DNA from: a virus
Taxonomy: Duplodnaviria > Caudoviricetes
DNA: 64,000 nucleotides
Virus record (IMG/VR): IMGVR_UViG_3300021399_000099
Coordinates: 1 to 64,000 of that record
Reading direction: 5' to 3' (one strand)
A program made the translations under genes and the position numbers. The notes below the pieces were generated by a model. The model was not told the origin of the DNA, searched no databases, and saw only the letters and a program-made list of their open reading frames with translations. Below, in pieces: positions 26,985 to 57,729 of the stretch (the stretch's first letter is position 1; every line of letters starts with the position of its first letter).

Positions 26985-27247
26985 ATTGCAACTGATTTTA
27001 GGGGTTAAACACTTACACCCTCATAGTAGCAAATTCAATGCCGGAACTGCATTTATTTGCAAAAAATTTCGTGGGTATATTAAAATAATTCTGTGACCAG
27101 GCTTAACAAAAGAAAAGCCCCCGGGGTGTAGTGGAATTTTACACCGCAGGGGCACATCCAAAGCTCCACATCCCCCGGGCCTACCAATTCCACTTGGTCG
27201 TTTCCGGCTTCATCTGCTTCATAGCTTCGGTTATTTAATCAACTGAC

Positions 27248-27571
27248 TTAGAACCCCAAGTCCATAAGATAGTTAGGCCAGCCGAGTTCTTCACATATCC
27301 TGTCGCACTGGGCAAGGTCATCTACGGGAACGAACTTTCCTTCACGCACCATTTTGCCGTAGTACTCGTCGCTGATAAGCCATTCATCGCAGATGCCGAA
27401 CATTTTGATAGTGCAGATACTAAATTTGGCGAGTGCCTCATTATCAACGAAAACGGAGAAATTGCCGGGTTTCTTCCTTTCACCCACTTTCACCCACACT
27501 TTCGGGGCGGTCATAATGTTGTGGTCAAAGTAGAGAACCATTTGTCCTTGCGCGATATTGCTCTTGTTCAT
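27248..27571 (-). CDS. Hypothetical protein (sigma54 cassette)
   Basis: ORF with its own promoter box at 27607. Confidence 0.85.
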   Translation of the reverse strand: MNKSNIAQGQMVLYFDHNIMTAPKVWVKVGERKKPGNFSVFVDNEALAKFSICTIKMFGICDEWLISDEYYGKMVREGKFVPVDDLAQCDRICEELGWPNYLMDLGF

Positions 27572-27624
27572 TGTGTTTGTGTTTTTGGGGTTACACTACA
27601 CTATATTGCAAAATCAATGCCGTA

Positions 27625-27990
27625 CTACTTGCTTTTGACGACAAACTTGTAGATTTTTTCAAGTTCATCGTGCAGGTAGATGAGTTCGTCCATTGAAAAA
27701 TCGTACATATCCATTCCGTTCCGTCCGTATTCTGCGGTACGGATGATGATATGCCCGCCCTTGTCCTCACGGCAGACTTCGGCGATTAAGTCCCAATAAC
27801 CCTCACAGCCTTCAACATTCACCCACGCACCGACCATTCCAGTAGTCACACCCATCTCCTTGAAAGCCCGCATATCAACTGAGCCGGTATTGGTCTTTGC
27901 CGTAATTGTATTGACCATTTCACGGATAGAACCGCATACCTCGTAAAGTAAGTTTGCCTTGTGGCGGAAAAGTGTATCGCTCTTTTTCAT
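27625..27990 (-). CDS. Hypothetical protein (sigma54 cassette)
   Basis: Promoter box at 28013. Confidence 0.85.
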   Translation of the reverse strand: MKKSDTLFRHKANLLYEVCGSIREMVNTITAKTNTGSVDMRAFKEMGVTTGMVGAWVNVEGCEGYWDLIAEVCREDKGGHIIIRTAEYGRNGMDMYDFSMDELIYLHDELEKIYKFVVKSK

Positions 27991-28020
27991 ATCAGTGTTT
28001 TCTTATTGTATATGCAAATC

Positions 28021-28431
28021 CTATGCCAGCGTGAGATTTCTAAACATCGGCTTTGTCAATGCGTTGTTGTTGCTGGCGATGATTTCAAGGGGCATAACCT
28101 TTTCAAGCACCGCGATAAGGTCTTTCTTCTTCATATATTCGGTGGTGGCTTGGTGGATGCCGTTGGCGGTGTTCAGCACCTCTCTACGCCACGAAAGCCC
28201 GGTCGTCTTAATGCCCAGGTCTTTGAGCCACTGCACCCGGTTTTCCCCAAAAAGGGTCAGCATATAGTTTGCCGTGCCGGGAACGCTATCGTCCTTGACA
28301 ACTTGGATATTGGCGGAGAAATGCACCTCTTTCACACCCTCCGGGAACTCCACGAAATTGCTGGCGGGAAGAACTACCTTGTAGCGGGTTTTGTCGCCAT
28401 TCACGAACCACTTTTTGAGCTTGATTTCCAT
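28021..28431 (-). CDS. Hypothetical protein (sigma54 cassette)
   Basis: Promoter box at 28458; its stop codon lies inside the next promoter. Confidence 0.85.
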   Translation of the reverse strand: MEIKLKKWFVNGDKTRYKVVLPASNFVEFPEGVKEVHFSANIQVVKDDSVPGTANYMLTLFGENRVQWLKDLGIKTTGLSWRREVLNTANGIHQATTEYMKKKDLIAVLEKVMPLEIIASNNNALTKPMFRNLTLA

Positions 28432-28533
28432 ATCTTATTGTTTTCTATACCTTTACTTGCAATAAGCGTGCCAAACTCACTGAGGATTAACGAATTGCCC
28501 CGGGAGCATTTAATATACCCCTGGGGTTGAATC

Positions 28534-28863
28534 TTACACGTAAGTCGGGGCGAAACCCTTCAATCCGTGTTCTTCCAGTGCTTGCAGTGCCCTTTGGCTA
28601 TCTCCTGCGGTGCGTGAGCCGATATTGAAGTAGATGGTTGTGTCTTCATCGACCCAATCGCCCTCCTTCCAATCGTAAAGCGTGAAAGGGGTTCCGTCTT
28701 CAAGTTCGAGCTGAAACTCAAAATTGACCTTGTCGCCACCATAGCGAGCAACGTCAATGTCAAGTTTGGAGCGGATTTCGTTTGCACTTGCGAGGATTGA
28801 GTAGCGGTGATAACTTGTACCGCTGAGGGTGTGCTCTTGGGAGAGTGGGAATATCTTTGTCAT
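28534..28863 (-). CDS. Conserved phage hypothetical protein
   Basis: GDKVNFEF...FTLYDWK motif; promoter box at 28897. Confidence 0.85.
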   Translation of the reverse strand: MTKIFPLSQEHTLSGTSYHRYSILASANEIRSKLDIDVARYGGDKVNFEFQLELEDGTPFTLYDWKEGDWVDEDTTIYFNIGSRTAGDSQRALQALEEHGLKGFAPTYV

Positions 28864-28910
28864 ATTCGTGTTGTTTATTGGTTGTGGTATAGTATGAGCA
28901 AATAGTGTGC

Positions 28911-29084
28911 CTAATAGTCAAACTCCCGCTTCAACCTTTTGCGGTCATAAACCTTTTTGGACTTGTGGGTGCGTGTCTTGCACATAGAGACCTGCTTGCC
29001 GAAAAGGGCGATTTCGAGTTCCCTATTGGCTTTCTTCATAGCGGTCACATATTCCTGCTGGGTGATTTTCGTTTTAGGTTTCAT
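28911..29084 (-). CDS. Small basic protein (57 aa)
   Basis: Manual translation MKPKTKITQQEYVTAMKKANRELEIALFGKQVSMCKTRTHKSKKVYDRKRLKREFDY. Confidence 0.75.
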   Translation of the reverse strand: MKPKTKITQQEYVTAMKKANRELEIALFGKQVSMCKTRTHKSKKVYDRKRLKREFDY

Positions 29085-29365
29085 AAAAAACTAAATTTCC
29101 ATTCGGTTGGTAGATTGTATTCTTCGCAGTAAATATCTGCCACTTTCGGGGTCATCTTTTCCGTTTCCCCTGGGGTATGCTTTTCAAACTTTTCTTCACA
29201 GGCAAAACTCTCACTGTATTCGAAAAGCACACCTAACAACCCAATTCTGCCACAAAGGGCATCAACACAGACGTAAGCCCCATTTTTCTCATCAATACCG
29301 ACCACGATATATCTTTGCATTCCCAATCGGTCTGCGATGAAATCACCTATTTTGAATTTTCTCAT
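29081..29365 (-). CDS. Hypothetical protein
   Basis: ATGA-coupled to both neighbours. Confidence 0.8.
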   Translation of the reverse strand: MRKFKIGDFIADRLGMQRYIVVGIDEKNGAYVCVDALCGRIGLLGVLFEYSESFACEEKFEKHTPGETEKMTPKVADIYCEEYNLPTEWKFSFL

Positions 29366-29535
29366 ATCAGTGCGATGGTTACGAACTTGTTAAAAAGGTA
29401 GGCGAGCATAGCGGTGTCGCCAGATGCTTTGACAACTGAACCCTTATGGGTGGCGGTTATTCCGCAATCCTTGAAGTAAGATACAAGGGCGATTGCCTCG
29501 TTCTCGTTGTCCATAGGAAATGTACTTGTTTTCAT
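29362..29535 (-). CDS. Hypothetical protein (57 aa, sigma54 cassette)
   Basis: Manual translation MKTSTFPMDNENEAIALVSYF...; promoter box at 29560. Confidence 0.75.
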   Translation of the reverse strand: MKTSTFPMDNENEAIALVSYFKDCGITATHKGSVVKASGDTAMLAYLFNKFVTIALI

Positions 29536-29579
29536 ATCATATCCGTTTTCCTATATATATGCAAAACCCGTGCCAGTGG

Positions 29580-29903
29580 TTATAGTTCATTATAACCGAG
29601 CCGTTTCCATTCTCTGCATTTGGACTTGATTGCATTTTGCTGGGCTGCCGGGAGGGTTTCGAACTTATAGCCGAACCGGGAATAAAGTTGTCCTACCCGG
29701 GCGAAGAGGATTGTTATCCGCCTATCAGTCAGGTTGTTATACACGATGATGATGCCCTTGTCGGTCAGTTCGAACCTTTCGGGTCCGTCTTTATGTCCCC
29801 GGTCGATTACATTGGTGAGAACCACGTTTCCGGGACCGCCCAGGTTGTCGATGATGGTTTCACGATAGGCCCGGTCAAAAGAGAAGTGCTTTGTGTTTGT
29901 CAT
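29580..29903 (-). CDS. Hypothetical protein
   Basis: 107-aa ORF; first gene of the leftward arm. Confidence 0.85.
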   Translation of the reverse strand: MTNTKHFSFDRAYRETIIDNLGGPGNVVLTNVIDRGHKDGPERFELTDKGIIIVYNNLTDRRITILFARVGQLYSRFGYKFETLPAAQQNAIKSKCREWKRLGYNEL

Positions 29904-30067
29904 ATGTCATTCCTTGTTGGTTACATCTATATATACGGCTAAACCAGCCAATTCTTACATTAAAACTACAAAAAATTATCGGGCTTAACAAGTTTTATCC
30001 CCGGTCTTTAATGTACCCCAGGAGTTTGGCACACTTATTGCATATAGTATAGGTGTTAAATCAATAA

Positions 30068-30268
30068 ATGTTACATATTATGGTTAATTTTATCCTTACT
30101 CTTTGTGCAGTATTTGCAACCATCTCCCTCATCGCCATCGCCGTTGAACTCTCAAACACCAGAACTGCCGTTGAAGATTTGGCATCCGGTCTTGACGAAC
30201 TGAACTCCGCTCTTGACGAGCTGAACTCGAATATCCGGGAATCAAGTATGTCCAAAGGTCGCAAATAG
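30068..30268 (+). CDS. Small membrane-anchored coiled-coil protein
   Basis: N-terminal hydrophobic helix and LDELNS repeats; promoter at 30027. Confidence 0.8.
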   Translation: MLHIMVNFILTLCAVFATISLIAIAVELSNTRTAVEDLASGLDELNSALDELNSNIRESSMSKGRK

Positions 30269-30324
30269 TTTGTGGCACACTTCTTGCATATAATAGGGTG
30301 TAGTCAAAAAAAAAACGAAATGAT

Positions 30325-30564
30325 ATGAACGACCTTTTCTCACAAGTCCTCGGCACTATCCGCAATGGTATGAAGATTACCTTCACCCCCGACAATGTTG
30401 CTTGTGGCGACCACTTCTTAATCTTCTCCGCCAGCAAGGAAATCACCGTTACCTTCCACACGAACTCCGTCCCCTTTTGGATTGACTTCAATGGGGGCGA
30501 ACCTATGCACTTGGCGGACTGCCCCGAAAGTTTCTTTGAAAGTATCCTTTTGAATGCCAAATAG
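30325..30564 (+). CDS. Hypothetical protein
   Basis: Promoter at 30273. Confidence 0.85.
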   Translation: MNDLFSQVLGTIRNGMKITFTPDNVACGDHFLIFSASKEITVTFHTNSVPFWIDFNGGEPMHLADCPESFFESILLNAK

Positions 30565-30713
30565 TTAGCCCGTCCGGTGGGGTATATTAAAAGTACGCCC
30601 CACCCAAGTTTAGCAAGTTTTTAAAATATTTTATTTTCAACTTTCAACCTGGGACCGGAAGTTTGGCATAGAATGTGCAATAGTATAGGTGTAACCCCAA
30701 AAAACTGAAAATT

Positions 30714-31118
30714 ATGCTTACGATTAACGACTTCACCACCGACCACGAGAACCTTGTCAATCTCCTTTCCGTTGCTACTTATGGCAACTACTGGCCCGAT
30801 ATTAGGGCATACAAGAGCGATGCTGAAAGTGGCTTGTTCGATGACTGCGAGTGCTGCGAGGACAAGTGGGCAAAAGCACTGATGCACGGCAAGGGTGTTG
30901 TGGTCTATGACTGGTATGAGCTGGACGATGCCGAAACCGATGAGGAAAGGGCGTCAGCAAGACACGAAATCACCCTTGTCGATGTGAAGAGAGGGCTGGA
31001 ACTGATGCGTGACAAATACCCCCGTCATTATGCCGACCTTGTGGAGGAAAACGATGACGCAATCACGGGAGATGTTTTCCTGCAACTTGCGGTTTTTGGA
31101 GAACTTATCTACGGATAA
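30714..31118 (+). CDS. Conserved acidic phage protein
   Basis: C-terminus DAITGDVFLQLAVFGELIYG; promoter at 30664. Confidence 0.85.
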   Translation: MLTINDFTTDHENLVNLLSVATYGNYWPDIRAYKSDAESGLFDDCECCEDKWAKALMHGKGVVVYDWYELDDAETDEERASARHEITLVDVKRGLELMRDKYPRHYADLVEENDDAITGDVFLQLAVFGELIYG

Positions 31119-31184
31119 TCTCCTTGTGGCACGAAACTTGCTTATAGTATAGTATAATGTTAAACCAATAAACCCTCTACGATT

Positions 31185-31472
31185 ATGAAAACTATCGCTG
31201 AACAGAACTCCGAACGTCTCGCTGCCCTCTCCGTTGCTTTCTGCAAAATGAATGGCATTGACACCAATATGGAGGTAGTACCCGCCCTCACTGACTGCAT
31301 TATGGGTGGAATCGCCAAGTGGTATGCCGAAAACGGACGTACCGACTTCAACCCCCGTACCGAACTGATTGCCGATGATGCTATCGTGTCGGCTTTCGCA
31401 CGGGCACAGGAAATCGTAATCCTCGCTGCTATCTCTGCTCAAACGGGTGTGGGTATGGATTGGGACGACTAA
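31185..31472 (+). CDS. Hypothetical protein
   Basis: Promoter at 31127. Confidence 0.85.
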   Translation: MKTIAEQNSERLAALSVAFCKMNGIDTNMEVVPALTDCIMGGIAKWYAENGRTDFNPRTELIADDAIVSAFARAQEIVILAAISAQTGVGMDWDD

Positions 31473-31600
31473 TCCAACCGCCCAACTCTCTCATTCCCGG
31501 GGGTATATTAAAGAACCTCCGGGGCATCCGTTAATCTCCAGCCCATTGACTTCCAAGTTTGGCACAGGATTTGCAATACTATAGGAAAAACGATAACGAT

Positions 31601-31768
31601 ATGAAAAAGTTTTGGGTAGTTGGAATCGTCTATGACACTGACGGCGAAAATATTGACCTCCCGGAAAGTATGGAGGTAGAGTGTGAAGATATTGAGCAGG
31701 CTATCGACCGGGTGAGTGATGAAACCGGGTGGCTCGTTAAAAGTGTTAAAAATATCATTGAGTTGTAA
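31601..31768 (+). CDS. Small acidic protein
   Basis: Start trimmed to ATG 31601, downstream of promoter 31560; SDETGWLV motif. Confidence 0.85.
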   Translation: MKKFWVVGIVYDTDGENIDLPESMEVECEDIEQAIDRVSDETGWLVKSVKNIIEL

Positions 31769-31829
31769 AAAGTTTGGCACACAATTTGCCTATAGTACTA
31801 CTGAAGTTTAACCCCTAAATCTTTTTGTT

Positions 31830-32273
31830 ATGAGCAAGCAGTACGACACCCGTTATTTCACCGCAAAAGTCAATGGCAAGGAAATCGAGTTCCGTTGCCA
31901 CACTACAGACACCCGCAACGGCTTTTGCCATACCGCCCACTATGTAGGTTGGGACTATGACATCAACGACACTAAAGTGAGTTACTACAATCGCACGTGG
32001 GAGCGGTTCGAGTACGAAAGTGTCCTCAAGCGGGCAATCGAGAAACTGCCCACTGAAGTCCGCCAGCAGGTCTATGACCAAATCATTGACGGAAAGGCAG
32101 CTGAAGAGGAAAAGAAAGCTGACGAAATGGTCGAGGCTTTCCAGAAACTCCACTCCAGCCTGTCGGACGAGAACAAGGAACGTCTTGCCAACTCCGGGAT
32201 TGAAATCCGCACTGAAGACGATGCCCGTGGCGTTATGGGCCTTATGGCTTTGATGAGCATAATGCAGGGATAA
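31830..32273 (+). CDS. Hypothetical protein
   Basis: YYNRTWERFEYESVL; promoter at 31775. Confidence 0.85.
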   Translation: MSKQYDTRYFTAKVNGKEIEFRCHTTDTRNGFCHTAHYVGWDYDINDTKVSYYNRTWERFEYESVLKRAIEKLPTEVRQQVYDQIIDGKAAEEEKKADEMVEAFQKLHSSLSDENKERLANSGIEIRTEDDARGVMGLMALMSIMQG

Positions 32274-32469
32274 AAACGAAATGCGAAGGCGGAGTAGCTA
32301 ACCGCGCCCGAACCCTTGAGGGAGGAAACGATAGGGCTTGGCCAACCGGAGGACGGGTTGGACTTAACTGCCAGGTAATCAAATACTTGGCGGTTTTGTT
32401 TTAACTTTAGCCCCGGAATTATTTTAATATACCCCGGTCTTGTGGCACGATTTTAGCATATAGTGTGGT

Positions 32470-32697
32470 ATGAGCAGATATTACCATAGTTTTCCAAGGG
32501 CTTACAAGAAACGCCCCATCTACACCGCCCTTTTTACCGAGGAGGACAAAGCCAAAATGGAGTACAACAAAAATATGAGTTTCCGCAAGTTCGTAGCCGA
32601 GTGGAACGCAGATGCACCGGAGTTGCTGGGCTGGTCGTTACTTGATTTTTACAATGCCTTCAAAAAAGGTGGCGTGCAACTCGCATTTTCCTTTTAG
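32470..32697 (+). CDS. Hypothetical protein
   Basis: Promoter at 32443; near-leaderless start. Confidence 0.75.
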   Translation: MSRYYHSFPRAYKKRPIYTALFTEEDKAKMEYNKNMSFRKFVAEWNADAPELLGWSLLDFYNAFKKGGVQLAFSF

Positions 32698-32737
32698 TTT
32701 GGCACGGAATATGCAATACTAATAGTGTAACCCCAAA

Positions 32738-32962: not shown

Positions 32963-32991
32963 ACTATTAAAACATTCTAAATCAGTTAATT

Positions 32992-33465: not shown

Positions 33466-33706
33466 CGACCAGGCCGGGGTATATTAAAACAATCCCGGTC
33501 CCTCGCTTAAAAATCCGGAGCTGGAGTTTGGCACGCTTTTTGCAATAGTATAGAATGTAATGGGAAAGTTGAAAGTGGCGGAAAAGGCAGAGCCACGCAA
33601 AGGACGGATAAGGATTGACTAACTGCACCGAAAAGTAGTAGCGTAACACTCAGTAGGATAAACTTCAAACCCCGTCACCCATTTTATTTATAAAAACACA
33701 AAGATT

Positions 33707-33910
33707 ATGACCCCAATTAAAATCATCAGTTCTATTTGTTTGGCTTTTTGCGTTGCCGGACTTCTCGTTGCCCTTATTGAAATTGTGATGAAGTTTGTTG
33801 GATTTATCGGTAAGTCAATAGCAAAAGAGCCGTGCAAGATAAGTATTGCCGGCGAACTTATTTTTGTTTTCATTTTTTCTTTCTTTATTGTGCTCTTTTT
33901 CATTATGTAG
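33707..33910 (+). CDS. Small two-helix membrane protein
   Basis: Two hydrophobic segments; stop codon overlaps promoter 33909. Confidence 0.75.
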   Translation: MTPIKIISSICLAFCVAGLLVALIEIVMKFVGFIGKSIAKEPCKISIAGELIFVFIFSFFIVLFFIM

Positions 33911-33949
33911 GCACGGGGTTTGCAATAGTATAGACAAAACACAAAGATT

Positions 33950-34129: not shown

Positions 34130-34150
34130 ACCAATAAAATATATCGCCAT

Positions 34151-34300: not shown

Positions 34301-34441
34301 TACGATGCTGGAGGGGGTATATTAAAAGTATGCCCCGCCCAATTTTAACGCAGACCCGATTTTTTTTTAATTTTTTCTCTTTAGCCGGATAGTGGCACAG
34401 GTTTTGCAATAGTATAGATGTAACCAAAAAACAATAAAGAT

Positions 34442-34669: not shown

Positions 34670-34728
34670 GTTTGGCACGCAATTTGCCTATAGTAGTACT
34701 GAAGTTTAACCATTAACCCCTTTTCGTT

Positions 34729-35037: not shown

Positions 35038-35207
35038 GCCACAATGCCTGAAGACCCTGGGGGTATATTAAATGCTCCCAGGTCCTTGCGTTAAGCCCAG
35101 CTCCGGTTTGGCACGGATATTGCAATATCAAGTAATGGTACGCACTTGAGTACCTTTTGGCACGATAGTTGTTTATAGTATAGTGTAACCAATAAACAAT
35201 AAAGACA

Positions 35208-35525: not shown

Positions 35526-35574
35526 TGGCACGATAGTTGCAGTATAGATAGTGTAACCAACAAAGACAACGAGT

Positions 35575-35814: not shown

Positions 35815-35861
35815 TGGCACGATAGTTGCATATATCATAGTGTAACCAAAAATCAACGAGT

Positions 35862-36323: not shown

Positions 36324-36460
36324 ATACTTGAAGGTCTGGGAGTTATGGGGTTCTCCCGGGCCTCGAGTTAAGCCATCGCCCAGCATTATTTTAATATACC
36401 CCGGTCTTGTGGCACGATAGTTGCTTATAGTATAGTACAACCAAAAAAAAAACATCAGTT

Positions 36461-37198: not shown

Positions 37199-37307
37199 AA
37201 GAAGTGCCCGGGGTATATTAAAACTATCCTGGGTCTTGCTTTAAGCCGCCTTGCAGTTTGGCACGATAGTTGCTTATAGTATAAGTGTAATCAAAAAACA
37301 ACAAGAT

Positions 37308-37802: not shown

Positions 37803-37864
37803 AAACAACTAAGTTTGGCACGTATCTTGTAATATAAAGGGTGTAACCGATAAAGAAACAAGTT

Positions 37865-38176: not shown

Positions 38177-38305
38177 GTTTTGTGCAACTGCCTTATTTCC
38201 AGGTGGTTGCACCATTTGTTAAGCCGGAGCCACCCAGCATTTTAATATACCCCCAGGAGTTTGGCACAGGATTTGCAATATAGTATAGTGAAACCAATAA
38301 AGACA

Positions 38306-39100: not shown

Positions 39101-39314
39101 AGATATGAACCCGTTTGAAAAGGAAGAACTTGAAAGGGCGTTGAACAATCCATTAGTGGATGTGTATCATATGCTCCCGCACTACACCATTGAAACCTAT
39201 TCCACCGGACAAGATAAACGCAGGGCACGCAGAAAGCAGGAAAGGAAAAACAAAAAGAAATAAGTTTGGCACGTAGTTTGCAATATAGATAGTGTAACCA
39301 AAAACAATACTGAT

Positions 39315-40079: not shown

Positions 40080-40188
40080 ATGATGCTGGGCGGGGTATAT
40101 TAAAACACCACCGCCCTTCAAGCTAAACCCGCGTCAGTTTGGCACAAGATTTGCATATAGTATAGTGTAACCAAAAAACAACAAGATT

Positions 40189-40927: not shown

Positions 40928-41044
40928 TCCAGCACCGGACGGGGGTATATTAAAATGCTCCCGTTCAATGCGTTAAGCCGACCTGGAGTTTGGCACGGCT
41001 TTTGCAATATAATACACTGAAACAACAAATAAAGACAATATCTT

Positions 41045-41257: not shown

Positions 41258-41451
41258 TACAACCATAAAAATTAAAACTATGTTTGAAGCTGTTACGTTT
41301 GGGGATATTATCCTTGACCTTTGTGTTGTGGCATTTCTTTTCGCCATCGTTTCCTGCTGGGCATACATTTTTTCTCCGGAAAACAAGGATGATGAATAGT
41401 CCGGCATGCATTTTGCTTATAGTATAGTGTAACCAATAAAACGAAAAAGAT

Positions 41452-41757: not shown

Positions 41758-41810
41758 GGTTTGGCACACCTTTTGCAATATAAAGAGTATAACCCCAAAA
41801 AGCAAAAAAT

Positions 41811-42512: not shown

Positions 42513-42642
42513 TTGTCATTGTGGGTCAGGAGTACGCCCTGACCCCTTTCGTTAAGCCCGGGAGCTCCAGCATTTTAATATACCCCGCAAGTTTGGCACG
42601 GAATATGCATATAGTATAGTGTAACCCCAAAATGACAAAGAT

Positions 42643-43077: not shown

Positions 43078-43151
43078 CATTGGTACGCACTTGAGTACCT
43101 TTTGGCACGGATATTGCTTATAGTATAGTATAACTAACAAAGGCAAGAAAT

Positions 43152-43511: not shown

Positions 43512-43563
43512 TTTGGCATAGAACTTGCTTATAGTATAGTATAACCAATAAAAACCCAAGATT

Positions 43564-43896: not shown

Positions 43897-44008
43897 GTGC
43901 CTGGGGGTCAATGACTTCCGGGCTTGTTTAACTCCAGCCACAAGATTATTTTAATATACCCCCCGGAGTTTGGCACACGATTTGCAATATAAGAGTAAAA
44001 CAACGATT

Positions 44009-44272: not shown

Positions 44273-44326
44273 ACTTTTTGGCACACCTTTTGCAATATCT
44301 ATACTGAAACCAAAAATGCACGAGTT

Positions 44327-44581: not shown

Positions 44582-44634
44582 GTTTGGCATAGAACTTGCT
44601 TATAGTATAGTATAACCAATAAAAACAAAAGGAT

Positions 44635-45042: not shown

Positions 45043-45085
45043 TCCGGCACGGGTTTTGCAATATAACAAGTAAAACGATAGCACT

Positions 45086-45541: not shown

Positions 45542-45769
45542 ATGAACACACACAACGATTGGGAGAACTTGCTCCGCATCTCCAACGAGAACTTGGAAAA
45601 GACCGGATATTCCTTGCTTATTACCGAGGATGAGGACGGCTACTATACCTGCGAGATTCGTAAAGACGGCGAACTTGTGGAAACCTACGCCGAGAACTTC
45701 TATGAGAACGAACTGAGCGACCTTATCATAGAAGCCCACCACCACGTTCTCACCACTTTGGCACGATAG
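45542..45769 (+). CDS. Acidic hypothetical protein
   Basis: Its TAG stop lies inside promoter 45759. Confidence 0.82.
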   Translation: MNTHNDWENLLRISNENLEKTGYSLLITEDEDGYYTCEIRKDGELVETYAENFYENELSDLIIEAHHHVLTTLAR

Positions 45770-45808
45770 TTGCTTATAGTATAGTGTAACCCTAAAAAAG
45801 AAAGAAAT

Positions 45809-46018: not shown

Positions 46019-46152
46019 AAGCAAGACAAACACCTGGTAGCCAATGAGTTACCAGGTTTCGCTAAGTCCGGACCTGGAGCTATTTTAATATACCCCCGAA
46101 GTTTGGCACACATATTGCATATACTATAGCGTAACCCTAAAAAATTGTTATT

Positions 46153-46839: not shown

Positions 46840-46936
46840 GCTGCAGGGCGGGGGTATATTAAAGTGACTCCCGCCCTTGAGTTAAGCCGCTGGGACTTTG
46901 GCACGCTTATTGCAATAATAAAGAAAAAACAAGATT

Positions 46937-47293: not shown

Positions 47294-47358
47294 ACTTTGG
47301 CATACCATTTGCAATATAACAAGTACAACACAAGTTCAACCTTTAAATCCAATTAGTT

Positions 47359-47640: not shown

Positions 47641-47691
47641 TTTGGCACGCGATTTGCAATATAGTAAGTATAACCAAAAAACAACAAGAAT

Positions 47692-48489: not shown

Positions 48490-48656
48490 CTCTTTCTAAC
48501 TGAATGACTTGGCTGGGCGGATTTAAAGTATCCGTTCAGCTGGGTTTTTAACGCCCGCCCTGGAGAAGTTTTAATATACCCCTACAAAAATATTTCAACA
48601 AAAACAAATCTGGCACGTGTTTTGCATAACTATGCCTGTAACCAATTAATTGCATT

Positions 48657-49196: not shown

Positions 49197-49268
49197 CCAT
49201 ATATGGTACGCACTTGAGTACCTTTTTGGCACGATAGTTGTATATAGTAAGCAAAAACCAATAAAGAT

Positions 49269-49775: not shown

Positions 49776-49787
49776 AACAGGAAAAAT

Positions 49788-50078: not shown

Positions 50079-50155
50079 TAGGGACTCAATTGAGTACCTT
50101 TTTGGCACGCTTCTTGCATTATACATTATTATTAACCTTTAAAAATACACTTATT

Positions 50156-50560: not shown

Positions 50561-50614
50561 TCTGGCACGGGATTTGCATTATACCATATCGTAACCAATA
50601 AATCATTTCAAATT

Positions 50615-50959: not shown

Positions 50960-50962
50960 CGT

Positions 50963-51145: not shown

Positions 51146-51196
51146 TTTGGCACGCTTCTTGTATATAGTATAGTGTAACCAATAAAACATACAACT

Positions 51197-51574: not shown

Positions 51575-51594
51575 CAACTAAAAATCAATCAATT

Positions 51595-51999
51595 ATGGAA
51601 CATATCCTCAATGAGAATGAACTGAACGAGGCTTACGCCGAAATGAAGTCCATCTACGAAAAAACCCGCGAGCTCGAGAAAAGGAAGGGCGAAATCAACC
51701 GGATGCTCATCCAGAATGCCATCAACAAGGCAAAGAGTCGGTTCCCAGGTATCGAGCCAGGTGACAAGGTGAAGGTTGTACGTAAGACCTATGACTGGAG
51801 AAATCCCAATGCAACCGAAACCGTCATCAGGTATATGGGTGGTTATTTCCGTGACCGCTATGGCTCCAGTGATTATAATAACCACGACGAGTACATCAAG
51901 CTCGAACTCTATCAGGTGAAGAAGGACGGCTCACGCTCGCTCAAAAAGGACGAAACGAACATCAGTAGCATCATCTCCATTGAAAAGGTGGAGGAATAG
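51595..51999 (+). CDS. Hypothetical protein
   Basis: KKDGSRS motif; A-rich leader. Confidence 0.85.
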   Translation: MEHILNENELNEAYAEMKSIYEKTRELEKRKGEINRMLIQNAINKAKSRFPGIEPGDKVKVVRKTYDWRNPNATETVIRYMGGYFRDRYGSSDYNNHDEYIKLELYQVKKDGSRSLKKDETNISSIISIEKVEE

Positions 52000-52071
52000 G
52001 GACTCAATTGAGTACCTTTTGGCACGCTTTTTGTAATATAATATGCTGTAACCAATAAAACACAATACATT

Positions 52072-52431
52072 ATGGGACTTAGAGCAACAGTTATTAGAAA
52101 GTATGAAGTTGAATACGGTCACTCTGAAGGTTTCAACTATGGCGCTGACGAGTTGAGTGCAATTATCCGTACATTCTGCGATGACTACTTTATCGGGGAT
52201 GATGGGAACTGCGGTGGAGATACTGACGTGGTCTGGGAGATTGACCGGGAGCAGTTTAAACAAATGCTCGAACAGATAAAGAGTATGACGCACGAGGAAT
52301 TCGTTTCGGCAGTCCGGGATGAATATTATTACGAGGACGAGTGGGACAAGGAGTATATCGTGCAGGTCTTCGAGAACTTCCTTGCAGAAACACCGGAAGA
52401 TTCTAACTATGTTCGCTTCGGCTGGCTGTAG
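52072..52431 (+). CDS. Acidic hypothetical protein
   Basis: Promoter at 52020. Confidence 0.85.
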   Translation: MGLRATVIRKYEVEYGHSEGFNYGADELSAIIRTFCDDYFIGDDGNCGGDTDVVWEIDREQFKQMLEQIKSMTHEEFVSAVRDEYYYEDEWDKEYIVQVFENFLAETPEDSNYVRFGWL

Positions 52432-52509
52432 TTTGGCACGATAGTTGCATATAATAGTACAGAACAAAACAACAATAAAAACATAAATCATTTAAAATCA
52501 ATTAGTTAT

Positions 52510-53169
52510 ATGGGTCTAGATATCTACTTCAAGAAAACCACCGTCCAGTTTCACGGTGACCCCTCGGACATCAAAGATTTCGACAACTTCTGCGAGGAAG
52601 CCAGTGATGCCGCAAGAAACGACCTCCGTGCCAAGATGGAAAAGATGCTCAAACCTCTTCGTGAGGCGTGGGATGCCCTCCAGACCAACGATTACTGGAG
52701 GAATATCTACAACGACCGCTATTTCGCCTTTGTGGAACAGCTCCGGTCTCTCATAGCCAAGAACTATGACTGGAAGATTTACCCTTACACCAAGGAGATT
52801 TTGGACTTCCCGGAGCTGGAGAAGCAGATTGACGATGAGGTCAAGTCCTACTACCTCCAGTATGATGCCTACTTCCGCAAGGTGAATTTCCTCTTCGCCT
52901 ACTACACGAACAAGGGCAAGATGGTTGATGAGTATTATGCCTTTACCGACAAGGAGGACATTGATGACATTATCAGCCGATGCGAGAGGGTACTTGCCGA
53001 CCATTCCCTTGCAAGCGAACTGCTTCCTACGCAGAGTGGCTTCTTCTTTGGCGGTACCGACTACGATGAGATGTACTTCGAGGATGTCGCTGACTGCCTC
53101 AAACAGATGAAGAAGTACCGCAAACTGCTCACTGACGGGGTTACCGGGTTCGTAATCTTCTCTTGGTAG
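52510..53169 (+). CDS. Conserved phage hypothetical protein
   Basis: MGLDIY...YFRKVN...LLPTQSGFFFGGTDYDE...SW; promoter at 52434. Confidence 0.88.
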   Translation: MGLDIYFKKTTVQFHGDPSDIKDFDNFCEEASDAARNDLRAKMEKMLKPLREAWDALQTNDYWRNIYNDRYFAFVEQLRSLIAKNYDWKIYPYTKEILDFPELEKQIDDEVKSYYLQYDAYFRKVNFLFAYYTNKGKMVDEYYAFTDKEDIDDIISRCERVLADHSLASELLPTQSGFFFGGTDYDEMYFEDVADCLKQMKKYRKLLTDGVTGFVIFSW

Positions 53170-53273
53170 AACAAAGAAACCGGGGGCTAAAAAATGGAAA
53201 AAGTCCCCGGTTTTTCTCCAATTTGGCACGGGATTTGCATATAGTATATCGTAACCAATTAAAACGTACTATT

Positions 53274-53495
53274 ATGACAAGAGTAAATTATCCTATGACG
53301 ATTGACGAACTTATCGTTGAGGCATTAAAAGCTAAGAAAAAGTTCGGCGGCAGCAAGTATGTCCTTATTTCCACTGATGAGGAGGGAAACGGATACCACG
53401 AGTGTTATTTCACATTTGGTGCCGGGGAGGAGATGCTTGACGGCTTCAACGGACCTTGTGACCTTAAGCCGGAGGAGTGCGTTACCCTTGGATAA
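53274..53495 (+). CDS. Hypothetical protein
   Basis: STDEEGNGYH; start trimmed; promoter at 53224. Confidence 0.82.
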   Translation: MTRVNYPMTIDELIVEALKAKKKFGGSKYVLISTDEEGNGYHECYFTFGAGEEMLDGFNGPCDLKPEECVTLG

Positions 53496-53529
53496 AAAGT
53501 TGTTTAACCAGTAAAAACGATATAATATT

Positions 53530-53772
53530 ATGTTTAGCGGCAAGAGATTTACCTACTATCAGCCCGAGGCTTACTACGACGATGGCACGAATGTCGATTA
53601 TGGCCCTATCCCTCCGGAACTCTATTCCTTCCAGGCATTTCCAACGAGAGAGGAGTGTGAGGCGTGGCTCGAGAACAACGGATACGAGCCCGGGGATTTC
53701 ACCATCCACGAGTACTCCGACGACGATATCGAAGATGTTGTCATAATCGATGCGGATGGTAACGTTATCTAA
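53530..53772 (+). CDS. Highly acidic small protein
   Basis: 19 D/E against 3 K/R in 80 aa. Confidence 0.82.
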   Translation: MFSGKRFTYYQPEAYYDDGTNVDYGPIPPELYSFQAFPTREECEAWLENNGYEPGDFTIHEYSDDDIEDVVIIDADGNVI

Positions 53773-53801
53773 AAGATTAATCACTTAAAGTAATACTTCA
53801 A

Positions 53802-54083
53802 ATGAAAAGAGAAGAAATGGTAACAGAGAACCTGGCGATAGGCCTTCTGGAAACAGGCAAGAAACTCGTGTATGGTGTTCTTAATACAGCATACTATGAC
53901 CTTATGGGTTATGCATTCATCGCCGGTGACACTCCGGAATGCCTGGGAGAGGTAGGATGCTCTGAGGAGGATATCGAGGCGGCGGACATAATGGAAATCG
54001 GCAGTGTAATTTACGGAGGCTGGCCAGCAGATAAAGCCATCGTCATCATCAAAATGAAGGACGACCGGCTCGAGGTCAGGTAA
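53802..54083 (+). CDS. Hypothetical protein
   Basis: 93-aa ORF. Confidence 0.8.
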   Translation: MKREEMVTENLAIGLLETGKKLVYGVLNTAYYDLMGYAFIAGDTPECLGEVGCSEEDIEAADIMEIGSVIYGGWPADKAIVIIKMKDDRLEVR

Positions 54084-54207
54084 TAGGGACTCTCTTGAGT
54101 ACCTTTTCCTTATAAGGTTGATTTTTTTCCTTATTCATACTATTTATTTTAACCGGTATGTCCCTTATATTTAAATAGTGTATGTAAGATGCGGCTTAGG
54201 TTGCCGG

Positions 54208-54283
54208 TGGCGTATAGCTCAAACAGAAGAGTGCTCGAGTGGTTTAACCTCGAAGGATGTCAGGGGCGGTACCTGATTACGCG
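54208..54283 (+). ncRNA. Degenerate tRNA-like cloverleaf upstream of rpsU
   Basis: GCGTA/TACGC acceptor; GCTC/GAGT D stem; TCGAG/CTCGA stem with a 9-nt loop; TCAGG/CCTGA stem with a non-canonical T loop. Confidence 0.5.
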
Positions 54284-54305
54284 GCTAAGAGAAATATGTT
54301 TAATT

Positions 54306-54497
54306 ATGCTAAGAGTAATTGTAAATGAAGGAGACAAAATCGACAGAGCCCTGAAGCAATTCAAACGCAAGGTGAATAACACGAAGTTGATACAACAGCT
54401 GCGTGCCCGGAAAGAGTTTGAAAAGCCCTCAGTGACTGCCAGAAAAGGAAAACTCAGGGCGGAGTACATCCAGAGACTTCGCAATGAGCAGGAATAG
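54306..54497 (+). CDS. rpsU: 30S ribosomal protein bS21 (phage-encoded)
   Basis: MLRVIVNEGDKIDRALKQFKRKV...LRARKEFEKPSV...AEYIQ, 63 aa, with a Bacteroidota-type C-terminus. Confidence 0.92.
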   Translation: MLRVIVNEGDKIDRALKQFKRKVNNTKLIQQLRARKEFEKPSVTARKGKLRAEYIQRLRNEQE

Positions 54498-54643
54498 CTC
54501 TCGAAAGATAGAGCATATTCACACAGTTTTTATTGGTTACAGAAGAGGGCCGTCGTGAGATGCCCCTCTTCAATTTTTTAACCTTTCAACACACACTTTG
54601 GCACGAGTTTTGCATATATAGTGCTGTAACCAATTTAAAACAG

Positions 54644-54832
54644 ATGATTATGAATATGAACATTATCGAGTCTTGGTGGCGCCATAACGGAATCGCCGAC
54701 AGAATCCAGGCCAGTGGAATCTTTTGCTATGACGACGTGCAGTGGTTCTTCCAGAAAACAGATAACTGGTGGGATTCCCTGACAGATGACGAGAAGCGTG
54801 ACGTGTATGACGAATTCTTTAGCGAGAATTAG
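54644..54832 (+). CDS. Hypothetical protein
   Basis: Start trimmed; promoter at 54599; DNWWDSLTDDEK motif. Confidence 0.8.
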   Translation: MIMNMNIIESWWRHNGIADRIQASGIFCYDDVQWFFQKTDNWWDSLTDDEKRDVYDEFFSEN

Positions 54833-54881
54833 GTACCGTGTCTTGTTAGTCTCAAAAAAAGTTAGTATATTAGAAATACCT

Positions 54882-54958
54882 CGGGGTGTATCGGCTCAAG
54901 CTTATACCTTGTCGAAACCGTAGCTGGTTGCACGGGGGTTCAAATCCCTCCACCCCGA
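54882..54958 (+). tRNA. Atypical tRNA-like RNA lacking a normal D arm, anticodon TAT (Ile?)
   Basis: Perfect 7-bp acceptor CGGGGTG/CACCCCG; T arm GGGGG-TTCAAAT-CCCTC; CAAG-CTTATAC-CTTG arm; promoter at 54843-54871. Confidence 0.6.
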
Positions 54959-54979
54959 CAATATATTTAAAACTTCATT

Positions 54980-55396
54980 ATGAAACGATTCTTTAACTTA
55001 TCTACAGGTATAATGCTGGGTGTCATCGCGATAGCTGTTATAGTTGCGGTCCTTAGTTCCACCATTAATTGGCAGGCTGTAATCTGGATGGTTATCGCGG
55101 CGATGTGGGTCGCCATCGCACGCGTGAATGAGATGATGTCTGATGGTTGGAAAGAGCTGTACTATAGTACCAATGACGAATTGACGGAGCTCAGGAAACA
55201 GAACACTGACACTGACGCGAAGTATCAGACAGCAGTACAGGACCTGGATAACGTGACCCAGAAAGTCGAGGAGCTCACTCAGGCTCTGGAAGCGAAGAAG
55301 CCCCGCAGGAAAAAGAAGTTGGACCTGTCGGATGAAGACGTCACCAGGATAAAGATGGAAATGCGAACGGCAGGTCTGATTAAGGAAGAAGAATAG
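54980..55396 (+). CDS. Membrane-anchored coiled-coil protein
   Basis: Two N-terminal transmembrane segments followed by heptads. Confidence 0.85.
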   Translation: MKRFFNLSTGIMLGVIAIAVIVAVLSSTINWQAVIWMVIAAMWVAIARVNEMMSDGWKELYYSTNDELTELRKQNTDTDAKYQTAVQDLDNVTQKVEELTQALEAKKPRRKKKLDLSDEDVTRIKMEMRTAGLIKEEE

Positions 55397-55414
55397 TTTT
55401 ATTGGTTATACGAT

Positions 55415-56027
55415 TGAAGCGTCGTCTAACGGCAAGACATGGGATTTTAGTTATTATAACTGAATGCACTGAGGGAAACCTTGGATGTAGAACCTCCCTA
55501 ATTCGGTGAAAGCTAAGTGAATGATGAAAGTAAGATTGTACGGCGGATTCCCAGAGATGGGGAACTATGAAGCAGTTCTTAATGTATGTACACTCATTTA
55601 TATGCCAATGCCGAGCCAATGTTATTCATCAATATATTATATGTCTTTGTAGGAGAGAACTGGAAAAGAATATTCCTTGCCCATTGTCGGCATAAGTTCC
55701 AGTATTGATGATAGACAGTGTGTAGAGACTATACAGGAGGAACCTAAGTTGAAATGCTTGATTACCCTACGCATGATTGACGTATAAATCCTATTATACA
55801 ACCAAATCATGAGTGAGATTAAAGAAACAACTAGTGAGTAGGATTAAAGCTAGGATGGTAATGAGCTGCTTGCAAGATTTCAATATGGTTAAGATACAGT
55901 CCAGACCACAAACAAATGAATCGACGAACGTCCTGAGGGATGTACAAGATAATCGTGGCGACATTTGGTAGTGAAAGCTATAGTGGCAAGGGTTCCCAGA
56001 ATAGAGGTTCGATTCCTCTCGCTTCAA
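55415..56027 (+). tRNA. trnQ: tRNA-Gln(TTG) interrupted by a group I intron; exons 55415-55448 and 55991-56027
   Basis: Joined exons form a full cloverleaf: TGAAGCG/CGCTTCA, GTC/GAC D stem, TGGGA-TTTT^GGT-TCCCA, AGAGG-TTCGATT-CCTCT. Confidence 0.9.
55449..55990 (+). ncRNA. Group I intron (542 nt, no endonuclease ORF)
   Basis: P1 with a U.G pair at the 5' splice site; terminal G; core elements AATTCGGTGAAA (~55500), AATGCCGAGC (~55607), GTAGAGACTA (~55722) and AAGATACAGTCC (55891). Confidence 0.88.
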
Positions 56028-56374
56028 CAAAAAAAACATTCGGACCCTTGTTTTTTTAAAAACTTGTTTGTATATTTATATAGAGAGTAAAGATTTTCCA
56101 TTTTGTTAATAAGTTTGACCGGTTAGTTTGCCAGACACGAAGACAGCTGCCAGACCACCTGTAATAGGGACTCTTTTGAGTACCTTTTTTACGCAACACA
56201 CCTCCTTTCTCGTTCTTGCAGTTGGTGCCTGACGTTGTAGATGATACGGTCAAAACAAGTTCTTTGGTATATAACATAGCCGGCTCAGCGTACGTTTTCA
56301 GTGGTATCGCGGCGGTTATGTCGAACAAGGATACGTACAGCAAGATTTTTAGTATATTGAAATTACTTAAAAAT

Positions 56375-56540
56375 CTGAGTAGCCCCACCGCGGTGATAGA
56401 CAGGCACCGTGGAATGAATGCAGGGATGGGAACTGCCGTCTTTACTACCGGTTACCTGGGAGACGTTAATAACCAGGTGCCCGTATCCTGTATTACCAGA
56501 GTGTTTAAAGAGGATGGCCACAACGGTCGTCCTCTTTTTT
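56375..56540 (+). ncRNA. Candidate structured non-coding RNA with terminator
   Basis: Several stems (CCGCGGTG/CACCGTGG; TGCAGGGATGGG/CCCGTATCCTGTA; ACCTGG/CCAGGT), then AGAGGATGGCC/GGTCGTCCTCT-TTTT. Confidence 0.4.
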
Positions 56541-56592
56541 GTTTATATCCGGTTTTTTCTGTATATTTATAGTGTATAGAATATATCATATT

Positions 56593-57354
56593 ATGAAAAC
56601 ATATGGACCGAAACTAATAGTGAATGAATGGCGTGACCGTAACGGGGAATTAAAACGCGAAGAGCATAACGTGATGCCTCTGTCTGAGTCGTCCCTGAAC
56701 CAGATGATGCAGCACGGTGAAACCGGTATGGTTATCATCTCGGCGAACAGGAGTGCTATCGACTCAGAGAACCCGAAACTGTCCCTGAGGCCTGATTTTG
56801 AAAAATATGTAGAAAGCGTCGGGGGCTATGATTCCATCGACTCAGATGCATTGTACGACGAGGAGCAGAACTGGCTTAAGCGTCGTAATGCCAAGGCTGA
56901 CAAGATACTTCGCCGGGATATAAAGAATGCCGGCTTCTCTTACTCTCCAGTATATGGGGGCTATCACGGTACCGACGGCGTAGCAGACAGCTATGAGCCC
57001 AGTTATGTCGTATATTGTTACAACAGGGACGGCGAGCTCGTGAAGTTTGATTATCTAGAAGAGTTCGCTCTTGAAATGTGCAGGAAGTTTAAACAGGACA
57101 GCGTATATGTGCAGCGTCCTGGTGACCCTCCTGTATATCTGGACGGCGCCGGCAACCAGGTGAATTCAACGTCTTCAGACAACTTCAAGTTCAACAGAGA
57201 GAAGGAACAGTTCTACACCACAGCAAAGAGGGATAAGTCCAATCCACAACGCTTCACAGCGGACATTGTCTTTGAGAATATGTTTATCCCTCTGAGACCG
57301 GCGGATTACAATGAGAAACTCCGGAGGATAAAATCAGGGGAATACATACTGTAA
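56593..57354 (+). CDS. Hypothetical protein (DUF3293-like fold possible)
   Basis: IISANRS...GFSYSPVYGGY...EPSYVV...KFKQDSV; TATTTAT at 56564. Confidence 0.8.
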   Translation: MKTYGPKLIVNEWRDRNGELKREEHNVMPLSESSLNQMMQHGETGMVIISANRSAIDSENPKLSLRPDFEKYVESVGGYDSIDSDALYDEEQNWLKRRNAKADKILRRDIKNAGFSYSPVYGGYHGTDGVADSYEPSYVVYCYNRDGELVKFDYLEEFALEMCRKFKQDSVYVQRPGDPPVYLDGAGNQVNSTSSDNFKFNREKEQFYTTAKRDKSNPQRFTADIVFENMFIPLRPADYNEKLRRIKSGEYIL

Positions 57355-57729
57355 GGTAGATTTGTTATTATGCATAGTCGATACCAGGTAAAATTGTCGA
57401 AATTCAGGCACTTTACCTGGTATTTTTGTTGAAATCTGGCACGCTTTTTGCAATATACCAGGTAAATACTTCTATGTTGCCAAGGCGGGAAATCCTGGTA
57501 CCCAGCGGACGAATCTTTTTTTAAGAGTGCCCGACGAAAAAAACCACTCTTGCCCGCTATTTTACTCAGGTAGAAATAATTTGCATTTTTTTCTTCCCGG
57601 GATATGGTTTGGCACGCTTCTTGCAATATACTGTACTGAAAGGTTAAAATAAAAAAGTGTGTGCGTGGGACCAGACCATTTCTGGGCTCTGCGGCACTGT
57701 GTATTATTGTATAGATAAAAAAATTGTAT

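Follow-up and report, generated by a model that had tools for sequence, protein, structure and literature searches.

Organisation of the small-gene block

The stretch of DNA analysed here (the window, 64,000 nucleotides (nt)) is the first 64 kb of IMG/VR virus record IMGVR_UViG_3300021399_000099 (Duplodnaviria; Caudoviricetes; hereafter G000), one linear record of 216,910 bp that is rated ~61% complete by CheckV. Between 27028 and 57625 it holds a block of small genes and 54 copies of a box, TGGCAC-N5-TTGCW, which has the geometry of promoters used by the sigma factor sigma-54 (RpoN). With ~60 genes of at least 70 amino acids (aa) in the block, this comes close to one promoter per gene. Few of the products could be annotated: one has a WYL_2 domain, one is SprT-like and one matches Bro-N weakly, and the others belong to no known family.

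Exact matches to the pattern number 33 in the window, where dinucleotide shuffles predict 0.05. A relaxed rescan, which allowed up to two mismatches, held GG and G(C/T) at invariant spacing and required an AT-rich stretch downstream, gave 54 boxes (48 plus, 6 minus), a count identical to that of an earlier note made from the sequence of this DNA. The invariant GG-to-GC spacing described in that note is likewise constant in 54/54 boxes, with the refinement that the second dinucleotide is G(C/T), TTGT replacing TTGC in five copies (Table 1). Within TGGCAC-N5-TTGC the GG and GC dinucleotides stand exactly 10 nt apart, a feature of the sigma-54 class, and the two conserved blocks are 11 bp apart, centre to centre.

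The placement of the boxes at gene boundaries, co-directional with and ahead of an ATG, was also claimed before and is borne out by the gene map. A co-directional, ATG-started open reading frame (ORF) of at least 40 aa lies behind 49 of the 52 scored boxes, the gap from box end to ATG having a median of 33 nt and falling between 20 and 50 nt in 45/49; of the two boxes outside the scored set, 27028 is followed by an ORF after 43 nt and 48611 after 30 nt. This constant 33-nt gap is compatible with a transcription start 11-13 nt after the -12 GC. The consensus in G000 reads agTtTGGCACg...tTTGCAt, then TATAGTATAG, then TGTAACC and an A-rich leader, and this previously reported succession of elements proved real on re-examination. 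Terminator-like hairpins are found directly upstream of boxes, and the T-runs of some abut the box. The region from 1 to 26 kb contains no true copy, as had been stated: just four matches with one or two mismatches occur there, three without a downstream ORF and one before a 52-aa ORF, and none has the leader.

Conservation of the box in related phages

A megablast search with 20 kb of the window against deposited phages gave no match and no near relative, and Rfam gave no match over the window. Annotation of the large proteins with PHROG and Pfam found them too divergent to class the phage. Searches with the ClpB-like protein returned no confirmed relative among genome contigs, and matches from mixed phyla, with no host call, in a protein atlas. 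The motif itself was more productive: the strict box-plus-leader pattern had no match in viral contigs, and a looser pattern recovered four relatives (G001, G002, G004 and G005), of which G001 is 361 kb long and rated 100% complete. Identity of the relatives to G000 is 54-58% for the ClpB-like protein, 51-57% for a 236-aa and 37-45% for a 287-aa sigma-70-family protein; their G+C content is 34-37% (~45% in G000), and few small genes of the block are common to them.

The core TTTGGCACg.TttTTGCaTATA is invariant in all five genomes, and all five show the extended sigma-54 consensus, with a pyrimidine before TGGCAC, a G after it and TT before GC. The -24/-12 consensus of sigma-54, reportedly published by Barrios et al. 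in 1999 (a work cited in PMC12316311), has its conserved positions where the box has them, in agreement with the assignment made in the earlier note. That the core has stayed fixed on this consensus while the proteins have diverged to 37-58% identity suggests that the reader belongs to the host and does not evolve along with the phage.

Boxes elsewhere in the genome and a second promoter class

When the 54 sites were turned into a 24-nt weight matrix, a scan of the 217-kb record gave 86 hits, compared with 2-3 in shuffled genomes. Fifty-five hits lie in the cluster and 31 outside it, so the expectation of enrichment in the cluster alone did not hold: the additional copies head genes, operons and transfer RNA (tRNA) arrays at 68-183 kb. 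Of these 31, 29 point leftward (minus strand), as do the genes of that region, and most have TTGTA at -12. The structural blocks at 1-26 kb and 184-217 kb have zero hits. Directly behind outside boxes are genes for an NAMPT-like NAD-salvage enzyme and a DUF932 protein; boxes 183050 and 180982 precede tRNA-like genes (a reading made by eye), and a tRNA nucleotidyltransferase gene belongs to the same minus-strand block. The gene of the 287-aa sigma-70-family protein lies ~1.5 kb downstream of, and co-directional with, box 87224 in G000, and in G001 and G002 its orthologue stands directly behind the last box of the cluster, placing the box class ahead of at least one phage sigma factor in the cascade. 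Right upstream of this gene in G000 (85706-85775, minus strand) is TTGACT-N17-TAGAAT, close to the consensus of E. coli-type promoters; it is a single instance, in a region where matches of this kind show no enrichment (58 found, 49 expected).

The structural blocks carry another element, (A/G)AC-TATTTAT, placed 24-42 nt ahead of the ATG of large genes that mostly look structural, and TATTTAT occurs before start codons 45 times genome-wide. Members of this class, which resembles the -10-only form of T4 late promoters, lack a visible -35 element. They are found at 1229-26261 of the window and at 184-217 kb of G000, preceding genes such as 19824-23189(-), 24122-25321(+) and 60466-61959(+), and are probably read by a phage sigma factor. 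As the structural blocks are free of boxes and carry TATTTAT, two promoter classes divide the genome into a non-structural and a structural part. The gene of the 236-aa sigma-70-family protein (206847-207557, minus strand) is directly downstream of an SbcC-like (gp46-like) gene (207584-209968, minus strand), a position that we take to recall that of the T4 late sigma gene 55 near genes 46/47.

Phage-encoded factors and other promoter patterns

Profiles of the sigma-54 DNA-binding and core-binding domains gave nothing over cut-off in G000 and the four relatives, and the sigma-54-activator profile matched only ClpB-like proteins in these genomes, with no enhancer-binding protein among them. Two candidates for a phage-encoded activator were considered and rejected, the ClpB/ClpC-like chaperone and a classical AAA ATPase of 376 aa, neither of which is an enhancer-binding protein; a PALLRRGR stretch in the ATPase is presumably the second region of homology. 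A check of the rest of the genome for rpoN or enhancer-binding-protein genes, proposed in the earlier note, found none in the G000 record or in the complete 361-kb relative, so that host factors would be needed. The profiles PF00940, PF00623 and PF00562, for T7-like and multisubunit polymerases, had no hit in the five genomes, complete G001 included; the PF00940 search was weak, its control genomes being blank as well. The D.DGD motif is in no large ORF. Sigma-70-family factors are encoded in all five genomes, in G000 by the 287-aa and 236-aa proteins.

In a consensus scan many boxes score as TTGGCA-N16/17-TATAGT, 10 of 12 positions. As a -35/-10 promoter of the sigma-70 type this was rejected, since TAnnnT at a spacing of 16-18 is present in just 20/53 boxes of G000 and 13/55 of the relatives, which does not exceed its frequency at other spacings. 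The most informative positions, the C after TGGCA and TTGC, would moreover fall inside the sigma-70 spacer. The -33/-7 promoter of Bacteroidota (TTTG, 19-21 nt, TAnnTTTG) was rejected too: it has nine scattered matches in 217 kb and is not enriched, and none forms a promoter for genes of the block, one merely running into box 37816. Scans for the sigma-70 and Bacteroidota patterns thus left no alternative promoter visible for the block genes.

The host side

Large phage proteins contain BACON and Fib_succ_major domains, and the leaders, of which A makes up 45%, are free of Shine-Dalgarno sequences (present at 30 of 304 genes, with 11% in random words). The stretch is found in metagenomes of goat, cattle and sheep gut or rumen from several studies. 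Together, the domains, the A-rich leaders without Shine-Dalgarno sequences and the ruminant source point to a Bacteroidota host. A pattern scan of bacterial genomes yielded rumen Bacteroidales as candidate hosts, among them a Prevotellaceae metagenome-assembled genome (G006). Sigma-54 is encoded in 41/41 genomes of the G006 family and 1-9 activators in 40/41. The sole activator of G006 (407 aa; contig L277, 3084-4307, adjoining lptE) has an AAA+ domain from residue 13, a lid and a Fis-type helix-turn-helix with no sensor domain, and is a candidate for the heat-shock activator of the lineage.

The scan pattern, 11 core letters plus two flanking restrictions, finds ~3 sites in a candidate-host genome (2-4.6 Mb) compared with ~1.6 for a reversed control, and host sites with the extension TTGCAT(A/T)(T/A) precede hsp20, htpG, clpB-type, groES and lon genes. 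TGGCA(C/T)-N7-G(C/T) stands 43-108 nt before the start codon in 30 of 30 groES genes examined. The consensus of these boxes is tTTGGCACgcTtTT.G(t/c)a, with GT at -12 in half of them, which is the change from C to T seen in the second flavour of phage box. Mapping of 5' ends in Flavobacterium psychrophilum located the sigma-54 motif SM4 at groESL, lon, dnaK, grpE-dnaJ, htpG and clpB (PMC9723704), and a phylum-wide survey of Bacteroidota predicts the same enrichment of sigma-54 at chaperone genes (PMC12316311).

In 6 of 30 host loci groES is preceded, at a distance of 100-190 nt, by a palindrome, TGACA-N3-TGTCA, and looser TGACA/TGTCA words are common upstream of other host groES loci. The palindrome recurs in two relatives, with 11 copies in the 20-kb early region of G002 and 5 in that of G001 against 0.01 expected, clustered immediately ahead of some boxes in arrays of 4-8 TGACA/TGTCA words (Table 1). 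There is none in G000, G004 or G005. The divergent region at 29.6-30.0 kb of the window was considered as a common enhancer and rejected, for it holds a gene with a degenerate box and no repeat array.

A probable pre-late programme read by host sigma-54

Several features support the boxes as promoters: they keep a fixed orientation and distance relative to start codons, have terminator hairpins upstream and are conserved in relatives. From there we infer who reads them, who activates them, when and in which host. As the phage shows neither a sigma-54 nor an activator of its own, the boxes are most likely read by the sigma-54 RNA polymerase of the host, and it is probable, judging from sequence comparison, that the phage runs a pre-late programme on host sigma-54 by copying the chaperone promoters of its host. 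The 54 boxes and the ~30 copies at 68-183 kb would then drive the whole non-structural (pre-late) part of the genome, comprising small accessory genes, NAD-salvage and tRNA-related genes, tRNA arrays and one sigma-70-family factor. The most likely activator would be the sensor-less (PspF-like) enhancer-binding protein of the host chaperone regulon, acting from solution in G000 and through the copied palindromes in G001 and G002. Transcription would begin at (T)GTAACC, 11-13 nt past the -12 G(C/T), giving a short A-rich leader without a Shine-Dalgarno sequence, and phage sigma factors made from the box class would subsequently turn on the structural blocks through their late AC-TATTTAT promoters. 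Whether all this would amount to a single ATP-dependent switch, as the earlier note suggested, can be put only conditionally because no enhancer is recognisable in G000.

Several observations weigh against a host sigma-54 programme. About a quarter of all copies in the record have T instead of C at -12, and in model systems this change weakens binding of sigma-54. The TATA/AT-rich stretch after -12 is conserved and is not a classical sigma-54 feature. A search of G000 for enhancers by positional information, TGACA/TGTCA counts, palindromes and 6-mers found only the terminator modules, so activation in G000 would have to proceed without an enhancer, which is unusual in vivo. As the record covers only ~61% of the genome, the absent ~39% could encode an activator, sigma factor or polymerase, and very divergent phage polymerases can escape Pfam. 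A spacer-type search with 20 kb of the cluster against 401 Bacteroidales genomes returned weak, chance-level matches only, which leaves the host as inferred, and two metatranscriptome runs gave few, short, low-depth contigs over the region.

A bolder form of the host sigma-54 programme is tentative and on balance rather doubtful. In it sigma-54 would be the only early and middle sigma factor of the phage, freed from enhancers: ~85 idealised boxes, each with an AT-rich stretch that melts readily, would open under the action of the host's sensor-less activator from solution or of an unrecognised phage protein, and infection would start the phage programme and at the same time capture, or drain, the chaperone stress circuit of the host.

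Activation could also be separated from reading, with the host sigma-54 holoenzyme binding the boxes and opening being independent of any host activator, owing to a new phage protein or to the AT-rich stretch from -11 to -1. The ~85 boxes of G000 have neither an enhancer palindrome nor any other shared upstream word, the AT-rich TATA(G)TATAG covers exactly the region to be melted and, if there are no housekeeping-type promoters, the first transcription after injection must come from the box class. However, we know of no natural sigma-54 promoter that works without an AAA+ activator; G001 and G002 retain arrays of the host palindrome, which argues that the family uses a host activator; and host chaperone promoters have TTGCAT(A/T)(T/A) as well, so that the extension is not specific to the phage. 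We regard this account as unlikely. Distinctly unlikely, in our judgement, is reading by a phage-encoded factor, be it one of the two sigma-70-family proteins (which the virion might bring in) or a divergent sigma factor or polymerase from the missing part of the genome. The two phage sigma-70-family genes, the sigma-70-like score of many boxes, the conserved AT-rich TATAG stretch that sigma-54 promoters classically lack and the incompleteness of the record would suit such a factor. It fits poorly with the scarcity of TAnnnT at canonical spacing and with the concentration of information in TGGCAC and TTGC, inside what would be the sigma-70 spacer. Furthermore, the sigma gene is itself behind a box in G001 and G002, complete G001 has no hit to a polymerase or sigma-54 family, and a phage-specific factor would not account for the same box at 30/30 host groES genes.

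The array might instead act mainly as a sink for sigma-54 holoenzyme, its activator or both, blunting the chaperone and stress response of the host, with phage transcription secondary or arising elsewhere. The numbers are suggestive, as 33 exact boxes in 31 kb of phage DNA face the ~3 pattern sites of a candidate-host genome (reversed control ~1.6), and replicating phage DNA would outnumber host sites many-fold. A decoy, however, needs no fixed orientation, no distance of 20-50 nt to an ATG, no conserved leader and no upstream terminator, all of which are observed, and no other promoter is visible for the block genes; as the main role of the array this seems very improbable, and titration of host sigma-54 as a side effect of the host-read programme is plausible.

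Junction modules and cassette exchange

About 14 junction modules occur at 28.4-47 kb, for example at 35050-35108, 37199-37258, 40080-40139 and 46840-46898, each with a covarying stem, a conserved loop TATATTAAA and a tail (T)TTCGTTAAGCC. The stem-loop can have either orientation relative to the tail, and the inverted form is found at 36350-36409, 38200-38261 and 42530-42593. These modules are probably terminators or insulators. In G001 and G002 (e.g. contig L142, 7110 and 10127) GCGTGCCA is placed 13-14 nt upstream of TGGCACGC, which is followed by TTTTT; in these relatives terminator and promoter thus overlap, the -24 element doubling as 3' arm of a terminator-like hairpin whose T-run forms the promoter spacer.

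Contigs from public DNA and RNA runs have their joints at promoters (35079->46881, 37278->40138, 43102/44596 and 36316/41760), skipping 1.5-12 kb from promoter to promoter. Joints of this kind are expected if the repeats mediate cassette exchange, and they suggest that strains differ by whole cassettes swapped at promoter repeats.

Relation to known systems

In the phage-shock response (Psp) of E. coli, the sensor-less activator PspF acts with sigma-54 at pspA and the response can be triggered by phage proteins. It is similar in being a sigma-54 stress regulon with a sensor-less activator like the 407-aa protein of G006, but its promoters are in the host genome and serve defence or repair, whereas here the phage would carry the promoters for its own genes. 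The chaperone sigma-54 promoters of Bacteroidota (PMC9723704, PMC12316311) share with the phage boxes the -24/-12 core with TT before TGGCAC and G(C/T) at -12, the TTGCAT(A/T)(T/A) extension, and a G-T-G/A..AA-C word near the predicted start. They also share the spacer GCTTT, which is present at phage boxes 33529 and 57437 and is the commonest spacer in G001 and G002, and, in these two relatives, the TGACA-N3-TGTCA palindrome. They differ in number, ~85 copies in a 217-kb virus against a handful per host genome, and the phage boxes are nearer to the ideal consensus than host groES boxes, have no enhancer in G000 and precede unknown small genes, NAD-salvage and tRNA-related genes and tRNA arrays instead of chaperone genes.

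The closest layout is that of the PeSLs (promoter-early stem-loops) of T4-type phages, in which an early promoter and a terminator stem-loop surround small non-essential ORFs of a hyperplastic region (Arbiol et al. 2010, PMC2839356). In both cases a repeated promoter and terminator flank small ORFs and the repeats mark gain and loss of cassettes; PeSL promoters, however, are sigma-70-like and read by the housekeeping holoenzyme, unlike boxes of -24/-12 geometry. Pseudomonas phage YuA has one sigma-54-like promoter beside sigma-70-like and phage-specific ones, as cited from Ceyssens et al. 2008 in PMC10914365. It is alike in that a phage promoter was assigned to host sigma-54 and unlike in that, as cited there, it is single and forms no genome-wide class. 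Pectobacterium phage Q19 encodes a doubtful sigma-54-like protein (PMC7693777). Beyond these two cases the literature search turned up no such regulon, in line with the earlier note, which knew of no described phage programme of this kind.

Textbook phages use the housekeeping sigma factor of the host or their own polymerase, and a pre-late programme run by sigma-54 would, if true, be a third strategy. Since sigma-54 drives chaperone genes in Bacteroidota, phage expression would be tied to the protein-stress alarm of the host, and the mechanistic question would arise of how ~85 enhancer-less promoters open. For Bacteroidales, where genetic parts are few, the boxes also supply a natural graded series of ~85 promoters that vary in their spacers and in having C or T at -12, and a host-type box together with a host enhancer palindrome is a signature that could help to assign hosts to uncultured rumen and gut phages.

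Coordinates of features and minor observations

Table 1. Features of the window and palindrome arrays of two relatives. Boxes are copies of TGGCAC-N5-TTGCW; remarks give the distance from the box to the ATG and the length of the ORF.
Feature	Coordinates	Strand	Remarks
Small-gene block, ~60 genes, 54 boxes	27028-57625		6 leftward (27.0-29.6 kb), 48 rightward (30.0-57.6 kb)
Box, 2 mismatches, CGGCAT..TTGCT	27028-27043	-	43 nt, 106 aa
Box, 2 mismatches	27607-27622	-	35 nt, 107 aa; full TGTAACC leader
Box	28013-28028	-	22 nt, 121 aa
Box, exact	28458-28473	-	26 nt, 136 aa
Box	28897-28912	-	33 nt, 109 aa
Box, exact	29560-29575	-	24 nt, 57 aa
Box, exact	30027-30042	+	25 nt, 66 aa
Box, exact	30273-30288	+	36 nt, 79 aa
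Box, 2 mismatches	30664-30679	+	34 nt, 134 aa
Box, exact	31127-31142	+	42 nt, 95 aa
Box, exact	31560-31575	+	25 nt, 55 aa
Box	31775-31790	+	39 nt, 147 aa
Box, TAGC at -12	32443-32458	+	first ATG 11 nt, 75 aa
Box	32700-32715	+	22 nt, 74 aa
Box, exact, spacer GCTTT (commonest at host groES)	33529-33544	+	no ORF of at least 40 aa behind
Box	33909-33924	+	25 nt, 59 aa
Box, exact	34393-34408	+	33 nt, 75 aa
Box	34673-34688	+	40 nt, 102 aa
Box, exact, first of tandem pair	35109-35124	+	followed by terminator-like hairpin and second box
Box, TTGT at -12, second of tandem pair	35158-35173	+	34 nt, 105 aa
Box, exact	35526-35541	+	33 nt, 79 aa
Box, exact	35815-35830	+	31 nt, 153 aa
Box, exact	36410-36425	+	35 nt, 245 aa
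Junction module: stem-loop (variable stem, loop TATATTAAA), tail ..TTTAAGCC	37199-37258	+	directly upstream of box
Box, exact	37259-37274	+	33 nt, 78 aa; DNA contig joint 37278->40138
Box, TTGT at -12	37816-37831	+	33 nt, 103 aa
Box, exact	38262-38277	+	28 nt, 264 aa
Box, exact	39267-39282	+	32 nt, 45 aa
Box, exact	40140-40155	+	33 nt, 200 aa (WYL_2 domain)
Box, exact	40991-41006	+	38 nt, 70 aa
Box, 2 mismatches	41402-41417	+	34 nt, 101 aa
Box, exact	41762-41777	+	33 nt, 233 aa (SprT-like)
Box	42594-42609	+	33 nt, 144 aa
Terminator-like hairpin GGTAC..GTACC and T-run	43082-43102	+	abuts next box; example of terminator-promoter junction
Box, exact	43103-43118	+	33 nt, 119 aa
Box	43514-43529	+	34 nt, 110 aa
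Box, exact	43971-43986	+	22 nt, 87 aa
Box, exact	44279-44294	+	32 nt, 84 aa
Box	44585-44600	+	34 nt, 135 aa
Box	45045-45060	+	25 nt, 150 aa
Box, exact	45759-45774	+	34 nt, 69 aa
Box, exact	46104-46119	+	33 nt, 228 aa
Box, exact	46899-46914	+	22 nt, 118 aa
Box	47298-47313	+	45 nt, 93 aa
Box, exact	47643-47658	+	33 nt, 265 aa
Box, exact	48611-48626	+	30 nt, 179 aa
Box, TTGT at -12	49227-49242	+	26 nt, 168 aa
Box, exact	50103-50118	+	37 nt, 134 aa
Box, exact	50563-50578	+	36 nt, 114 aa
Box, TTGT at -12	51148-51163	+	33 nt, 125 aa
Box, TTGT at -12	52020-52035	+	36 nt, 119 aa
Box, exact	52434-52449	+	60 nt, 219 aa
Box, exact	53224-53239	+	34 nt, 73 aa
Box, exact, TGTAACC leader	54599-54614	+	34 nt; no ORF of at least 40 aa called
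Box, exact, spacer GCTTT	57437-57452	+	~70 nt with inverted repeats (ACCAGG..CCTGGT) and T-run, no ORF
Box, exact	57610-57625	+	first ORF 104 nt downstream
ClpB/ClpC-like two-ring AAA+ chaperone	5106-7742	+	only over-cut-off match of the sigma-54-activator profile in the phage
Classical AAA ATPase (PF00004), 376 aa	10519-11649	+	conserved in relatives
TGACA/TGTCA arrays, G002 (contig L142)	126-200, 5081-5171, 7333-7410, 12817-12901, 16130-16191		
TGACA/TGTCA arrays, G001 (contig L141)	2038-2120, 11426-11465, 19489-19544		

Some sites depart from the common arrangement. The regions 33545-33900, 57453-57530 and 57626-57729 have no ORF behind their boxes, and box 57437 may, from the inverted repeats and T-run that follow it, drive a small RNA. 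A minus-strand gene with its ATG at 29905 has the full TATATAGATGTAACC leader at 29921-29960 and a degenerate, near-palindromic box, TTGGCTGGTTTAGCC, of wrong GG-GC spacing. In G005 (contig L144) there is a repeat TGGCA-N6-TGGCATTTGGTATTAACGAATATT with five copies, at 1621, 2416, 10122 and 15227 on the minus and 7769 on the plus strand, in which TGGCA appears twice, in place of TTGC. Finally, between the structural block and the leftward promoters of the window, at 26272-26587, a 55-69-nt unit rich in GGAAAAAATTTTTTT is repeated imperfectly in tandem, with three to four copies.

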